IMG/VR virus record: IMGVR_UViG_3300045988_053677
Coordinates: 1-31,987 of that record
Reading direction: 5' to 3' (one strand)
DNA from: a virus
DNA: 31,987 nucleotides
Position 1 is the first letter of the stretch. The number at the start of each line of letters is the position of its first letter. Below are positions 16,370 through 25,159 of this stretch, piece by piece. The translations under genes were made by a program, and so were the position numbers. Under the pieces are notes generated by a model, which saw only the letters and a list, made by a program, of their open reading frames with translations, had not been told where the DNA came from and did no database searches.

Positions 16370-17248
16370 ATGGATAAAAGTACTACGTTGGAGCGTGCGT
16401 TGTTTTACTTTGTGAAACATAAAGAAGCGCATGGTAAAGCCACCAATACGACAAAAGCAACTTACATTTGTATTCTTGAAGACTTTATCAAATCGATAAA
16501 AGCCGATACGGTTGGCGACTTAGATATTTTGATGATTGATAACTTTATCGACACCTTATCTTTGAAAAGCTACAAGCCGAAAACTATCAAAAATAAAATC
16601 GTGGTTATTAGAAGTTTTATCAAATTTTTGTATTCTAAAAACCTTATAGACATCAGACCTGAAGCGATTGAAATACCAAGAACCGTTGAAGTAGAGGCTA
16701 ATTTTTTAGATGAAGAAGAACAATGTGCTCTGATAAAATCCGCTAGAAATCTAAGAGATAAAGCCTTGATTATGACTATATTAAGCAGTGGGTTGCGGGC
16801 TTCCGAAATCTTAAATCTCAAGGAGGATGATTTATACAGAAGGTCTCTTATAGTTTCTAGAGGAAAAGGCGGAAAGCCAAGAGTAACTTTTATCGATCCT
16901 CTAACAGAAAAGTCTATTAGAGAATATCATCACAAAAGAGAAGTAGACTCTGTTTTTGTTTTCACGAACTCTTTTGGAAAGCCTCTCAGCCGACAATATC
17001 TCTCAAGAATGATATCCGAAACCGCTCTAAGAGCTGGGATTAAAAAGAGAGTAAGCGCGCACACTTTAAGACATAGTTTCGCTACTAATATGCTACGAAA
17101 AGGAGCAAGAATTGAAGATGTTCAGCCTTTAATGGGTCATTCAAACATCTCAACCACTAGATTGTACATGCATTTTACGAACGAATATTTAAGAGAACGC
17201 TACGATATGTTCAATAAAGATATTGACAAAACGCTCGCGGTTTGCTAA
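16370..17248 (+). CDS. Tyrosine recombinase, XerC/XerD-like (integrase family)
   Basis: The N-terminal SAM-like core-binding region and catalytic motifs are present: SGLRASEIL, AHTLRHSFATNML, MGHSNISTTRLYMH. Confidence 0.9.
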   Translation: MDKSTTLERALFYFVKHKEAHGKATNTTKATYICILEDFIKSIKADTVGDLDILMIDNFIDTLSLKSYKPKTIKNKIVVIRSFIKFLYSKNLIDIRPEAIEIPRTVEVEANFLDEEEQCALIKSARNLRDKALIMTILSSGLRASEILNLKEDDLYRRSLIVSRGKGGKPRVTFIDPLTEKSIREYHHKREVDSVFVFTNSFGKPLSRQYLSRMISETALRAGIKKRVSAHTLRHSFATNMLRKGARIEDVQPLMGHSNISTTRLYMHFTNEYLRERYDMFNKDIDKTLAVC

Positions 17249-17329
17249 GATAAGAGTATCAAAGTTGAAAGACTTTAGTAATTTTACAATGATTGCTTTG
17301 TAGATAATAAAGGTTTCACCTTTACATTT

Positions 17330-17371
17330 GCCGCTTTAGCTCAGTTGGCTAGAGCAACGGTTTTGTAAACC
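17330..17371 (+). other. Truncated tRNA-Thr(UGU)-like sequence (5' acceptor strand through the anticodon loop only); candidate attP core
   Basis: GCCGCTT-TA-GCTC-AGTTGGCTA-GAGC-A-ACGGT-TTTGTAA-ACC folds as acceptor 5' strand, D-arm and anticodon arm. Complementarity stops after ACC; there is no T-arm or 3' acceptor strand. Confidence 0.7.
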
Positions 17372-17397
17372 ACCGCCTTTATGGCGGTTCTTTTTTT
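17372..17397 (+). terminator. Rho-independent terminator
   Basis: ACCGCC (17372-17377) / GGCGGT (17383-17388), loop TTTAT, followed by TCTTTTTTT. Confidence 0.8.
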
Positions 17398-17402
17398 ATC
17401 TA

Positions 17403-17424
17403 CATCACGAAAGTGGTGTTTTTT
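17403..17424 (+). terminator. Second, tandem rho-independent terminator
   Basis: CATCAC-GAAA-GTGGTG (one G-U pair, GNRA loop) followed by TTTTTT. Confidence 0.65.
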
Positions 17425-17432
17425 AATTTCCA

Positions 17433-17458
17433 CGAGGTTGTCAAATGCGTATCTGATA
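17433..17458. repeat. Right copy (inverted) of the 26-bp repeat; lies in the loop of a 7-bp hairpin (CACGAGG 17431-17437 / CCTCGTG 17460-17466)
   Basis: CGAGGTTGTCAAATGCGTATCTGATA is the reverse complement of 14085-14110 with one mismatch, at 17440. Confidence 0.9.
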
Positions 17459-17775
17459 GCCTCGTGCAGAATTAACAAACTGTAATATTACGATTACGTA
17501 AGCGACACCGTAAAAGAGCGTACGACGAAAATTATACAAGCGTGACAGATTGCTCGAAGGTTCAGGCGTAACACGTGTAGAAGTTAGTATTTTAACAATT
17601 TGGAATTAGTGGGTAGCGTCGAGCGGTTTGATAGCCGCTAGCACATTTTTAATTCAGCTGGCGTTCGATGGGTTAAGTTTTATTACAACTTTGTAGTTCT
17701 TGTTTATTTTCGAACGCTCAGCGCTGCTCACTACAGGTCTCCCACACCTGCGCTAAAAAGTGGGCAGTATAAAGC

Positions 17776-17796
17776 AAAAACCGCTCGAAAGAGCGG
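17776..17796 (-). terminator. Hairpin that reads as an intrinsic terminator only on the minus strand
   Basis: The + strand reads AAAAA-CCGCTC-GAAA-GAGCGG. On the minus strand the stem is followed by TTTTTGCTTT; on the + strand no U-tract follows. Confidence 0.4.
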
Positions 17797-17836
17797 CTAC
17801 AAAGCCATTATATCAAATGGCAGATTGAGAGTAAAT

Positions 17837-22436: not shown

Positions 22437-22667
22437 ATGGCTGGCAATACGATTGGTGGTAAGAAAGCCGCTCAGAAAAACCTAGCAAGCAACCCGAACT
22501 TTTATGCAGAAATCGGACGAAAAGGCGGCTCTGCTACATTTGCATCACACGGAACTTGTAAAGGATTCGCACAAGATATCGAATGCGATTGCGATCTAAT
22601 CGACGGTCCTCACTTTGTAAAAAAGTGTGCAGGTAAAAAAGGCGGTCGTATCAGTAAACGAAAGTAA
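22437..22667 (+). CDS. KGG-repeat (general-stress-protein-like) small basic protein
   Basis: GGKKAAQKN...FYAEIGRKGG...AGKKGGRISKRK resembles the KGG stress-protein repeat. Confidence 0.45.
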   Translation: MAGNTIGGKKAAQKNLASNPNFYAEIGRKGGSATFASHGTCKGFAQDIECDCDLIDGPHFVKKCAGKKGGRISKRK

Positions 22668-22682: not shown

Positions 22683-22880
22683 GTGTGGAGGTTATGGCAT
22701 AAATTATTCGGTTGGGATTACATTCAATGGAATCTAGGTACGCACGGAATTAGACGAATACGAGTAGCCCCGAATGGACTTGTCTATTTTATGTGTCTTG
22801 GTGAGATTATTAATCTAGCTGAACCAGGATACCATAAAATTATGTACTTGACTTGCTCGAAGGATAAATACGTCAGGTAA
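22683..22880 (+). CDS. Hypothetical protein (65 aa, Trp-rich)
   Basis: GTG start follows AAAGGAG. No motif recognised. Confidence 0.4.
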   Translation: MWRLWHKLFGWDYIQWNLGTHGIRRIRVAPNGLVYFMCLGEIINLAEPGYHKIMYLTCSKDKYVR

Positions 22881-22914
22881 ACGGGTACAATTTGTACCCA
22901 GTAGAACATTAACA

Positions 22915-23391
22915 TCAACCGCAGAACTGGACAGATGACTATTTTGCCCACCCGAGTCGTCTGTTCAACTGGCGACATAATCTGAGGAATAAAGCTGGGT
23001 TCCCGAATGGGAGTAAGCCGAAAGGTGAGAAATCCTTTGCTCCGTGATTGTGTTGTCAACTGGCAACATCAAACCTTAAAGTAATTAACTCACTTAATGA
23101 TATACAAATTGGTGTTGTCAACTGGCTATATAAGTGGCGGAATAGGTAGACGCTAAAAGGAGAAGATGTAAGAGTCCGTTAGCTTCGAAGGGTCTAATGG
23201 CTGGTGTTGCGTTACGGCGGATTTAGAGTGATGACGTGGAGTTATTCATGGAGCTACACGAACAGCTTGTTGTTACCGTCGGACAGCCCAACAGAACCAG
23301 GTAACGAGGCGTCCATGAAACGCCTACAATACCTCGACTCGCTGTGATGTGCAAATCATCACCTTATATAGCCAACCAGTTCTGCGGTTGA
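22915..23391 (+). ncRNA. Candidate large structured RNA (family unassigned); the alternative is an inverted-repeat-bounded DNA element
   Basis: 22915-22930 is perfectly complementary (16 bp) to 23376-23391, and 23123-23134 (12 bp) to 23363-23374. Several nested hairpins are present. There is no + strand ORF. Local GC is ~52-55% on two hand-counted lines versus 33-42% on two coding lines. Confidence 0.5.
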
Positions 23392-23427
23392 ATTAAACTA
23401 CACGAAATTGTGTAAATAAGGAAGATT

Positions 23428-23829
23428 ATGACCAAGCCACACTTTAGCTCATTAAGAATGGACTGGCGAACGCCCAAAGCTGTCTATCAGGTTCTTGATT
23501 CAGAGTTTCAGTTTGACCACGACCCATGTCCTGCTGGTTGGGACGGCAAAATTGATGGGCTGTCCAGCGATTGGGGCAAATCAAACTACGTCAACCCACC
23601 ATACGGTAGAGAATTACCAAAATGGATTGAGAAAGGTCACCAGGAATGGCAGAAAGGTAAAACAGTCGTGTTTTTAATACCCAGCCGCACCGACACACGC
23701 TGGTGGCACGACTACTGCATGAAAGCAACCGAAATTCGTTACATAAAAGGCAGGCTTAAGTTTGATGACCAATCAAACCCGGCACCATTTCCGAGCGCGA
23801 TAGTGATTTTCAAAGGGAATATCAACTAA
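23428..23829 (+). CDS. dam: Phage Dam-type DNA N6-adenine methyltransferase
   Basis: WRTPKAVY...SNYVNPPYG (NPPY motif)...VVFLIPSRTDTRWWHD...PFPSAIVIF matches the phage N-6-adenine methyltransferase family. Confidence 0.8.
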   Translation: MTKPHFSSLRMDWRTPKAVYQVLDSEFQFDHDPCPAGWDGKIDGLSSDWGKSNYVNPPYGRELPKWIEKGHQEWQKGKTVVFLIPSRTDTRWWHDYCMKATEIRYIKGRLKFDDQSNPAPFPSAIVIFKGNIN

Positions 23830-24063: not shown

Positions 24064-24476
24064 TGCGTGATATCAAATTTAGAATCTGGGACGGAGCTAA
24101 AAATGAATGGCTTGCCTCGAGCGACAAGGACGCTTTGCCATATTATGGCTTTGCCTTCGTCGGTGAAGTTATGACTGTCCAGTCACCACCAATTTGGTCA
24201 CTTGATGAAGGTAATGTTGTTGAGCAATTCACAGGACTAAAAGACATTAATGGTACAGAGATTTACGAGGGTGATATCTGCTCTTTCACTAGCAAAACTG
24301 GTAAACATGTGGGCACAGTAGAGTGGACAGATGATTTAGCTGGTTTCGGATTACGAATGGTCAAAAATAACTTCTTATATACTTTTTCCGAGCTAGATAC
24401 TATGGGGGTTAATCTTGATACGTTGGAAGTTGTCGGTAATATTCACGAAAACCCCGAGTTGTTAGAGGATAAATGA
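24063..24476 (+). CDS. YopX-family protein
   Basis: MRDIKFRIWD...EQFTGLKDINGTEIYEGDI...VVGNIHENPELL is the classic YopX pattern. ATG 24063 follows AAGGAAA. Confidence 0.8.
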   Translation: MRDIKFRIWDGAKNEWLASSDKDALPYYGFAFVGEVMTVQSPPIWSLDEGNVVEQFTGLKDINGTEIYEGDICSFTSKTGKHVGTVEWTDDLAGFGLRMVKNNFLYTFSELDTMGVNLDTLEVVGNIHENPELLEDK

Positions 24477-24662
24477 AAATCTATAACGTAGAGAGTAAAA
24501 ATAAGTCTGTTGAATAATTTTCTGGTATAATTGAATTACGGGCTAAGCTGTTTGATTGTCGGCTTACATAATCCTATAAAAAACTACTACTTTTGATCGA
24601 GGGTAGTTTTTTTATTTTGCCAAAAAATCCTAAAAGGCGGATTACTTGTTTACCTCTATTTA

Positions 24663-24671
24663 TGCTATAAT
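24663..24671 (+). promoter_or_regulatory. Extended -10 promoter (TGCTATAAT) ahead of the packaging/head operon
   Basis: TG is at 24663-24664 and TATAAT at 24666-24671, in a 275-nt intergenic gap. No good -35 element. Confidence 0.6.
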
Positions 24672-24751
24672 ATAAGTACAGTATGTGAGTTGAAAGAACG
24701 CAACTCTGAAGTAAAACGTTCTTATGTATTTTTAAAATGAGGTGGATATAA

Positions 24752-25159
24752 ATGGATAAAAAACCAAGAAAGCTAAATCCAAGGCAAGAAAGATTCTGTC
24801 AACTATATGCGAGCGATAGAGAATTTTTTGGCAATGGCGTGCAAAGTTATATTGAAGCCTACCAGCCCGATCAGTCAAAGCCTAATTGGTATAATGCTGC
24901 CAAGACGAGAGCTTCTGAACTCCTGACTAGTCGTAACGTTTTAAGGAGGATAGACGAGCTATTTGAGGCTGGTGGATTGAATGACCAGTTTGTTGATAAA
25001 CAGATGGAGAAGCTTATCACACAGGACGCTGATTTCAAAGCTAAGATGTCAGCAATTAAAGAATACAACAAGCTCAAACAGCGAATAACCGAAAAGAAGG
25101 AAGTCCATGTCAAACTTCCTAAACCAATCCTTGGTGATTTGGTGGAGGGCGAACAATAA
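24752..25159 (+). CDS. terS: Terminase small subunit
   Basis: KLNPRQERFCQLYA....YIEAY...AKTRASELLTSRNVLRRIDEL matches the Terminase_2-type N-terminal HTH. Lies directly upstream of terL. Confidence 0.8.
   Translation: MDKKPRKLNPRQERFCQLYASDREFFGNGVQSYIEAYQPDQSKPNWYNAAKTRASELLTSRNVLRRIDELFEAGGLNDQFVDKQMEKLITQDADFKAKMSAIKEYNKLKQRITEKKEVHVKLPKPILGDLVEGEQ

Follow-up and report, generated by a model that had tools for sequence, protein, structure and literature searches.

What does a phage genome encode in a stretch where no gene can be recognized? The question is raised by positions 22915-23391 (477 nt) of a viral sequence of 31,987 nt (IMG/VR record IMGVR_UViG_3300045988_053677), the whole of which was analyzed and is called the window below. 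The element lies in the interval 22881-23427 (547 nt), where a first-pass annotation had reported the absence of genes and where we indeed find no + strand open reading frame (ORF) of at least 55 aa; the interval is among the two longest such gaps of the window. That annotation had suggested a single large, ornate RNA of the GOLLD, ROOL, or HEARO kind. Its observation is partly confirmed and its interpretation partly supported, and the finding is real but other than was proposed: we can say with high confidence that the element belongs to a family of + strand structured RNAs in which a conserved frame encloses interchangeable hairpin cassettes. For the whole explanation, function included, in which such an array of RNA cassettes would act in trans and have a counter-defense role, we estimate a probability of roughly 0.4.

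A Structured RNA Encoded on the + Strand

Two perfect helices that had been pointed out were recovered by a repeat finder: positions 22915-22930 are the exact reverse complement of 23376-23391 (16 nt), and 23123-23134 are that of 23363-23374 (12 nt; inverted repeat I3). Both are conserved in related phages. The whole element folds at -168.5 kcal/mol on the + strand (z = -6.4 vs. shuffles) and at -141.3 kcal/mol on the - strand (z = -3.7), and its 5' half, 22915-23134, is strand-asymmetric as well, with -64.4 kcal/mol (z = -3.37) on the + strand and -49.4 kcal/mol (z = -0.12) on the - strand. In 90 arrays of the family, with 198 distinct cassettes, the basal stems contain 1577 Watson-Crick and 345 G-U pairs as against 90 A-C juxtapositions, the form in which a G-U pair of the opposite strand would appear. 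The outer stem, termed O, is paired in 96.2% of cells across 21 distinct arm pairs; U-G and G-U wobbles recur in it when the + strand is read, and there are a few double changes (e.g., G-C to U-A); its covariation is modest because there is little variation. The G-U wobbles, taken together with the strand-asymmetric z-scores, argue for a transcript of the + strand, and the sequence evidence supports the view that the gap encodes a noncoding structured RNA of that strand, framed by both helices as had been suggested. Since no promoter or terminator was detectable for the array, the operon transcript probably includes it.

The GC enrichment that had been noted is present, the element ranking in the top 5% of 477-nt windows, but it is modest (46.1% vs. 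41.1% for the window) and comes almost wholly from 23135-23362 (49.6% GC). By the folding model, the frame and the 5' half are clearly predicted to be structured beyond chance, and the detail that had been drawn in the 3' half is not. Two hairpins proposed there, GTTACC/GGTAAC and AGGCG/CGCCT, are indistinguishable from chance in a 228-nt stretch with z = -0.53, and the supposedly ornate 3' half is a unique insert without detectable structural signal. Of the local hairpins listed, GTGATG/CATCAC at 23344-23362 holds up, as it recurs in the family.

Anatomy of the Element

A five-way junction is indicated both by the minimum free energy (MFE) fold and by the homologues. The key to this anatomy is a three-copy direct repeat, GTGTTGTCAACTGGC, which the first-pass annotation had missed and which the repeat finder placed at 22959, 23050, and 23112 (copies of 15-20 nt). 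The features are as follows.

22883..22899, + strand: leader hairpin GGGUAC-AAUUU-GUACCC, directly 3' of the stop codon of the upstream ORF
22900..22914, + strand: conserved leader AGUAGAACAUUAACA; GAACATTAACA(A)T(T) stands 5' of the outer stem in nearly all members
22915..22930, + strand: 5' arm of outer stem O, UCAACCGCAGAACUGG, perfect 16-nt complement of 23376-23391
22931..22964, + strand: cassette A, 9-bp hairpin ACAGAUGAC/GUCGUCUGU with loop UAUUUUGCCCACCCGA (MFE fold)
22965-22970, + strand: linker UCAACU between cassettes A and M
22967..22972, + strand: junction word AACUGG, also at 22925-22930, 23058-23063, and 23120-23125 (direct-repeat family D1)
22971..23057, + strand: cassette M, 12-bp basal stem closing a three-way junction (blastn, covariance model)
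23000-23013 and 23017-23026, + strand: helices of M, P3 (UUCCC-GAAU-GGGAG) and P4
23058-23061, + strand: linker AACU between M and C
23062..23119, + strand: cassette C, 12-bp stem GGCAACAUCAAA/UUUGGUGUUGUC with AU-rich apical part CCUUAAAGUAAUUAACUCACUUAAUGAUAUACA (MFE fold)
23120-23123, + strand: linker AACU; U23123 is able to pair with A23374
23124..23373, + strand: cassette T, 11-bp closing stem GGCUAUAUAAG/CUUAUAUAGCC (12 bp with U23123-A23374) around a variable interior
23134..23153, + strand: GUGGCGGAAUAGGUAGACGC within T, common to 20 of 64 arrays
23154..23343, + strand: GC-rich interior of T, 49.5% GC, unique
23156..23171, + strand: AAAGGAG-N3-AUG-UAA, a ribosome-binding site, start codon, and immediate stop (sequence reading)
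23344..23362, + strand: 3' hairpin of T, GUGAUG-UGCAAAU-CAUCAC, placed like a T-arm right against the closing stem's 3' strand
23375, + strand: single A
23376..23391, + strand: 3' arm of outer stem O, CCAGUUCUGCGGUUGA, pairing with 22915-22930

In the junction word, AACU is the linker and GG the opening of the next stem, and the word is found 5' of every cassette of the family. The basal stems of M and C are similar, ~12 bp each (GGCRACAU... / ...GUGUUGUC), and A and T have closing stems of their own. What had been taken for one domain of ~190 nt consists of three separate hairpins; a further hairpin proposed there, TGTTG/CAACA at 23051-23068, would join the 3' strand of M to the 5' strand of C, and in the family these strands pair elsewhere. 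The leader hairpin GGGTACRAWTYGTACCC lies ahead of most arrays in related contigs, the left (leader-side) flank of the arrays being conserved and the right flank not.

The Cassette-Array Family

The family was entered through a 57-nt piece of M, which blastn matched to intergenic DNA of Corynebacterium phage Poushou and of a human gut phage. Pattern scans of IMG/VR with the M core, the O arm, and cassettes A and E yielded at least 90 distinct complete arrays from uncultured phages, probably of Streptococcus type. The 90 distinct complete arrays considered here measure 134-778 nt (131 nt is the shortest in the other array sets of the analysis), and all 90 have the leader, a long-range O stem of 15-16 bp and of the form CAACCGYAGAACUGG / CCAGUUCURCGGUUG, and the junction word. 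The same traits are seen in the window: leader GAACATTAACA, outer stem CAACCGYAGAACTGG / CCAGTTCTRCGGTTG, AACTGG before the hairpins, and a position downstream of a gene encoding a KGG-repeat protein. Arrays differ in the identity, number, and order of their cassettes, the types being A, long A, M, C, D, E, T, and several rarer ones; the window has A, M, C, and T. Cassette A, present in 59 of the 90 arrays, is found only inside arrays, and a search for stand-alone A or E beside other defense genes returned none, both occurring only inside arrays where tested.

A sample without ascertainment by cassette was obtained by picking 80 loci through the upstream KGG-repeat gene. Five of these were uninformative (four too short, one with an unparsable gene end), leaving 75; a complete array lies 35-282 nt past the stop codon in 72 of the 80, only the 5' arm is seen in three, and an array-less (empty) site was found in 0/75. 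The sample comprises 64 distinct arrays with at least 27 cassette compositions, in which C is the commonest cassette (52 arrays), followed by T (37) and M (15). Quite different arrays (e.g., A-C-T, M-A-C, and long-A-C) are found in contigs whose NinG region shares ~95-97% identity with that of the window, from which it follows that the locus is fixed and its cargo hypervariable. The repeated junction and basal-stem sequences are a plausible recombination substrate for such reshuffling. Two phage contigs, L099 and L148, each have two separate arrays, and in both the second array lacks M.

Cassette M and a DUF3644 Nuclease Gene

The M cassette of the window has 85-88% blastn identity to intergenic RNA of phage Poushou and of gut phage MT837689, and the match to Poushou, an independent one, has E = 4e-9. 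Our covariance model R1 scores it at 71.9 bits (E = 5e-20), the window sequence being in the seed. It has the three-way junction, the core GCUGGGUUCCCGAAUGGGAGUA ... GAGAAWUCCUUUGCYCC, and all covarying helices by which the M type is recognized. The structure of M consists of a closing stem P1, GG/CC, RGC/GCY, and GGG/CCY steps, the hairpin UUCCC-GAAU-GGGAG, and a variable hairpin. In an alignment ascertained through the neighboring gene described below, 98.5% of cells are paired and 11 pairs show compensatory changes; the covariation score is 0.324 vs. 0.167 for shuffles, and 0/500 shuffles reached it. A pseudoknot between GAAGGA and UCCUUU was rejected, as the 3' U->C change usually leaves the 5' A unchanged and the nested GGG/CCY step fits better.

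Outside arrays, M is a stand-alone gene of ~90 nt, its closing stem followed by a U-tract, with a sigma-70 promoter (12/12 in L047; 11/12 plus a TG extension in L010). Around the window copy (22971-23057), neither a promoter nor a terminator was found. The neighbor of stand-alone M is a gene for a protein of 320-346 aa with DUF3644 and EC042_2821 restriction endonuclease (REase)-like domains, which is the PADLOC candidate system PDC-S19 (E = 1e-140). These DUF3644 proteins carry an RNxSTH motif, and DUF3644 is counted among the HEPN RNase domains (Anantharaman et al. 2013, PMC3710099). Among 122 sequences ascertained by the M motif (121 loci and the window), 61 have the DUF3644 gene, always convergent with M, and in nearly all of these the gene ends at most 90 nt from the M core. 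When the loci are ascertained by the gene instead, M is present in 77/80, on the opposite strand and overlapping or abutting the 3' end of the gene, and the three misses are truncated at that point. Examples are L010 8717-9800, L047 5819-6898, and L001 2982-4178 (phage Poushou gp31); in L010 the last 11 codons of the ORF (KNKSTPGAKEF) are antisense to the 3' part of M.

In GenBank, the DUF3644 protein is found in 28 Streptococcus records (mostly Javan satellite phages), 10 of Staphylococcus, 5 of Corynebacterium, 2 of Listeria, and 1 of Flavonifractor. In all five records tested (L430-L434, i.e., MK448437, MK448336, MK448517, MW192778, and MK448721), among them satellites of S. mitis, S. agalactiae, and S. 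pyogenes, M lies between the gene and the integrase. Altogether, the pair of M and DUF3644/REase occurs in elements of Streptococcus, Staphylococcus, Listeria, Corynebacterium, and gut Clostridia. We also considered M as an attachment site and rejected this, given that the integrase of the Javan satellites is at the record end with M internal, between integrase and DUF3644 gene, and that M has a consensus promoter. The genetic linkage suggests that M and the DUF3644 HEPN-REase protein (PDC-S19) probably make up a new RNA-protein toxin/defense module. The entire window gave no DUF3644 homologue by tblastn, which makes its M an orphan copy.

M is further found directly after transfer RNAs (tRNAs) in the tRNA arrays of other phages. 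At L037 1636-5000, seven tRNA or tRNA-like genes accompany a full-length ROOL RNA (210.8 bits), with M directly after the last tRNA. The L014 contig has M, then a string that we take to be like the D-arm of tRNA-Leu, and also a twister-sister ribozyme match at 2892-2961 on the - strand (44.7 bits; gathering score 34).

Cassette T and Links to tRNA

The closing stem and 3' hairpin of T are conserved in 53/90 arrays, and the interiors between them differ completely. The short form of the 3' hairpin seen in the window is identical in L405; most other arrays have an extra sub-hairpin in its loop (GAUGUGACUWUACGA...CUCGGCAAAUCAUC). Homology of the window's T interior to other loci of the family is limited to the first ~20-40 nt, and probes from its core found nothing in one scan of IMG/VR or in two scans of Joint Genome Institute (JGI) metagenomes. 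In L395 (8528-8866, - strand), an ORF for a 112-aa HNH endonuclease is nested inside an intact T cassette, with its ribosome-binding site in the 5' part of T and its stop codon in the conserved 3' part; GGCGGAAAGGAGAAGUAUG opens this ORF at the position that matches AAAGGAG-N3-AUG-UAA of the window. The possibility that the T interior of the window is a decayed HNH gene was rejected, since tblastn with the L395 HNH protein gave no match in the window. The arrangement in L395 recalls endonuclease ORFs in the loops of introns; no intron model matches. A group I intron, considered on account of this ORF, was dismissed: RF00028 matches neither the window nor 14 other array loci including L395, and the element is intergenic and interrupts no host gene.

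GUGGCGGAAUAGGUAGACGC, at the start of the T interior, presumably resembles the D-arm of a class II tRNA (e.g., tRNA-Leu), and neither ARAGORN nor Rfam calls a tRNA there. In L426 (3395-4031), the first cassette is tRNA-like and the last is a genuine tRNA-Tyr(GUA); the O 3' arm (CCAGUU) opens with the 3' CCA of this tRNA, a hint that AACUGG / CCAGUU, the junction word, may go back to a tRNA 3' end. ARAGORN calls tRNAs in 2/90 arrays only, two arrays have a tRNA-like first cassette above the Rfam tRNA threshold, and L426 and L414 both have tRNA matches inside their arrays. T looks like a tRNA-derived container for variable cargo.

Searches against Known RNA Families

Searched against Rfam 15 at the gathering score, the whole window matched no family, including GOLLD, ROOL, HEARO, OLE, and raiA, the models that the first-pass annotation had put forward. 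At E<=10, the region 22700-23600 gave two chance matches only, to a Tetrahymena snoRNA family and to ToxI (RF02519; 16.9 bits against a gathering score of 50, E = 3.7). ARAGORN predicts 0 tRNAs or transfer-messenger RNAs (tmRNAs) in the window, and the Rfam models for tRNA (RF00005) and tmRNA (RF00023) give none in that region at E<=10. For the 14 other array loci, Rfam matches are to tRNA only. A type III RNA antitoxin of the ToxI kind was rejected on the sub-threshold score and the lack of tandem identical units and of an adjacent toxin gene; TIGR-Tas, CRISPR-like, and retron systems were rejected for want of uniform repeats and of any neighboring gene for Tas, Cas, or reverse transcriptase. 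In the literature searched, no paper describes the cassette-array family, the M RNA, or the pairing of M with DUF3644/REase. The array and the pairing are thus absent from both Rfam 15 and the searched literature, and the family appears to be new, as the first-pass annotation had thought it might be.

Genomic Setting

All ORFs of at least 150 aa in the window are on the + strand, and the genes run in the order tail, lysin, replication/recombination (DnaB-like, ERF, YqaJ), array, terminase, head. The lysin is of streptococcal type, with Amidase_5 and ZoocinA_TRD domains, and from these domains alone the phage host is probably of Streptococcus type; the large terminase gave no information on the host. 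Among GenBank phages, we found no close relative of the surrounding genome by megablast of 8 kb or blastn of the flanking genes. A scan of genome contigs with a pattern of 15 specified bases gave chance matches only, with neither array nor M in any of them.

The array lies in a variable small-gene region, adjoining a gene for a Dam-type methyltransferase and 1.3 kb upstream of the small terminase gene. Dam-type methyltransferases are typical anti-restriction genes. The genes downstream of the array vary among relatives (Dam, YopX, HNH, and others), and the KGG-repeat gene is upstream in 75/75 informative relatives; in the window it occupies 22437-22667, with an extra 65-aa ORF between it and the array. 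Its product is a basic protein of 76 aa with a Cys-rich C-terminal half and has no match in PHROGs. The protein might bind the array RNA as a partner or serve as its chaperone.

The other long gap of the window without a + strand ORF of at least 55 aa is at 17249-17824 (576 nt), directly after a tyrosine-recombinase-like gene (16370-17248) that is located within the replication block and not at the genome end; this gap may hold - strand genes, an attachment region, or a regulatory region. A further ORF-free gap, 275 nt long (24477-24751), immediately precedes the gene for the small terminase. GC content is only 32% in a 400-nt composition window (24401-24800) that covers most of this gap, a candidate cos/pac or late-promoter region.

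Proposed Function and Alternatives

In the explanation that we prefer, the array would be transcribed with the early/middle operon, and its RNA would fold into a compact, multi-branch, nuclease-resistant form that may be released by cleavage at stem O or cut into single cassettes at the junctions. The cassettes would then act in trans, as decoys or mimics of RNAs that host defense nucleases bind or attack. M in particular would be an antitoxin-like RNA, by which a HEPN-REase toxin is kept silent during infection when host transcription collapses. Two precedents exist. Phage phiTE reportedly defeats the ToxN system with a pseudo-ToxI RNA. RCd22 is an RNA that binds the prophage HEPN protein AbiF directly and thereby neutralizes it (PMC12373285). 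The hypervariability of the cargo, when the backbone is conserved, and the position next to a Dam-type gene fit a conflict-driven accessory locus, and a counter-defense function of the array seems to us conceivable at somewhat less than even odds. It is more doubtful, if still worth considering, that the locus is a hypervariable RNA counter-defense array in the full sense, a fixed phage platform that captures, shuffles, and coexpresses decoys (M, tRNAs, and tRNA mimics). We are equally tentative about the narrower point within that reading, that the decoys would be copies of RNAs that the immune nucleases of the host either require or target.

Several observations weigh against this functional reading. 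The T interior, half of the window's element, is without structural signal: 23135-23362, i.e., the T interior with the 3' hairpin, folds at -64.9 kcal/mol on the + strand (z = -0.53) and at -56.3 kcal/mol on the - strand (z = -0.68). The role of M as antitoxin of the HEPN-REase protein is itself read from gene linkage, and M, present in only 15/64 arrays of the unbiased sample, cannot be what the locus chiefly does. Cassettes A, C, E, and T have yielded no partner, and neither a promoter nor a terminator was detectable for the array. The core of the window M is nearer to the general consensus than to the M variants of the five Streptococcus and Staphylococcus elements sampled, from which it differs in helix P2. 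The host, finally, has been read from nothing but the lysin domains.

We therefore weighed the locus against other kinds of RNA. It might be an array of processed stable RNAs comparable to a tRNA cluster, serving translation, host takeover, or housekeeping with no part in defense, in which case M would be a generic module. The genuine tRNA-Tyr of L426 with its CCA within the O 3' arm, the two arrays with a tRNA-like first cassette, the occurrence of M directly after tRNAs in other phages (in one also with ROOL), and the tRNA-like topology of T, with a string that we take to be D-arm-like and in which no tRNA is called, all speak for this account. It remains rather unlikely in our judgment, because ARAGORN finds a tRNA in only 2/90 arrays and none in the window, because fast turnover of cassettes on ~95% identical backbones better fits conflict-driven cargo than housekeeping, and because the tight linkage of M to the HEPN gene would go unexplained. 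One large RNA of the GOLLD/ROOL type, folding and perhaps oligomerizing as a whole, would account for an ORF-free, phage-borne element of ~0.5 kb with long-range helices and a strongly negative z-score, the more so as GOLLD and ROOL are associated with phages and tRNAs and a ROOL lies near the M copy in L037. Homologues made of modular, independent cassettes, which are gained, lost, and reordered in arrays of 131-778 nt, are incompatible with one conserved tertiary fold. The T interior is moreover unique and unstructured by z-score, and no relevant Rfam match appears even at E<=10, the 14 other array loci giving tRNA only, so that this idea, which was that of the first-pass annotation, is now very improbable.

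The array might instead act in cis, as a 3' untranslated region, RNase III site, or stability insulator for the mRNA of the KGG or Dam/YopX genes, with the cassettes as passengers. Its constant position 35-282 nt past the KGG-repeat gene and its lack of a promoter or terminator of its own are what one would expect of such an element, and a long perfect stem like O is an RNase III-type duplex. Yet a stabilizer needs neither at least 27 cassette compositions nor a three-way-junction RNA from a defense locus, and the varying downstream genes (Dam, YopX, HNH, others) offer no single regulated target; we regard a cis role as improbable. Least credible is an element that works as DNA, whether a miniature inverted-repeat transposable element (MITE) with 16-bp terminal inverted repeats or a protein-binding site for recombination, replication, or packaging (GTGTTGTCAACTGGC x3). 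The perfect 16-nt terminal inverted repeats, the three direct repeats of 15-20 nt, the fact that cassettes must be shuffled at the DNA level, and the small terminase gene 1.3 kb downstream could be cited for it. A mobile DNA element had been named as a possible refutation of the RNA proposal, and its signs were not found: the window has a single copy (in two related contigs there is a pair), the flanks ...ATTAACA| and |ATTAAAC form no clean target-site duplication, there is no empty site in 75 relatives, and the left flank is conserved together with the element whereas the right is not. The excess of G-U over A-C (345 vs. 90) and the strand-asymmetric stability point to a + strand transcript and not to duplex DNA, and compensatory changes maintain the pairing of the hairpins.

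Phage counter-defense is known almost entirely through proteins, and RNA examples are few (pseudo-ToxI, and phage tRNAs that replace cleaved host tRNAs). If the array locus swaps structured RNA cassettes in the way we read it, it would be a new place to seek RNA-based immune evasion, an interest sharpened by the homology of M to the obligate RNA neighbor of a HEPN nuclease. A hypervariable counter-defense array, if real, would be the RNA counterpart of anti-defense gene islands and integron cassette arrays; as a corollary, PDC-S19 with M would be a new RNA-controlled toxin/defense module, widespread in prophages and Streptococcus satellites. The pairing with M turns PDC-S19 from a single-gene candidate into a probable RNA-protein module. 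Two testable objects result, the cassette-array family with at least 90 distinct members and the pair of the M small RNA and the DUF3644/REase protein.

Comparison with Known Systems

The arrays resemble ROOL and GOLLD (RF03087, RF01998) in being noncoding, several hundred nt long, associated with tRNAs, and located in phages of Firmicutes. Some GOLLD RNAs are said to embed a tRNA, and one array here likewise holds a tRNA. Unlike ROOL and GOLLD, which have a conserved global fold, the arrays conserve only the outer stem and the junction word around interchangeable hairpins. The tRNA cluster of phage T4 yields, besides tRNAs, the non-tRNA stable species 1 and 2 RNAs, and the arrays are similar to such clusters in that small structured RNAs stand in tandem in one transcript, in that tRNAs are mixed with non-tRNA hairpins, and in that M is found in phage tRNA clusters; they differ in being enclosed by a 16-bp stem, in sharing a junction word and basal stem, and in their scarcity of tRNAs (2/90 arrays, none in the window). 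Bacterial Y RNAs (YrlA), whose 5' and 3' ends pair in a long stem and which carry a tRNA-like module and occur in some phages, also invite comparison, as the array too combines an end-to-end stem with a tRNA-like module. In contrast to them, the array has no Rfam match and no Ro/Rsr gene nearby, and its outer stem lacks the bulged Ro-binding helix.

Like ToxI with ToxN, M is a structured noncoding RNA tied genetically to a toxic nuclease, and the logic proposed for M, a phage-borne RNA copy able to defeat the system, is the one for which ToxI/ToxN is reportedly the precedent. The same genetic tie is seen between RCd22/abiF and AbiF (PMC12373285). Unlike the abiF motif and ToxI, M has no Rfam match, is convergent at the 3' end of the gene and not upstream of it, and is not tandemly repeated.

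At the level of DNA, the arrays recall the streptococcal BOX and RUP elements and MITEs in their modular build of the A-B-C type, inverted ends, and stable predicted hairpins, whereas the array is one fixed locus with neither target duplication nor empty sites and its cassettes are not short uniform repeats. An analogy can further be drawn to integron arrays and anti-defense islands, which have a fixed platform, variable cargo, and short recombination-prone junctions; unlike in integrons, the cargo of the array is RNA hairpins and not genes, and no dedicated integrase or attC-type sites were identified. Stable structured RNAs clustered in phages are a known kind, as are RNAs that partner HEPN toxins, and what is previously uncatalogued is a closed, hypervariable array of cassettes delimited by a junction word.

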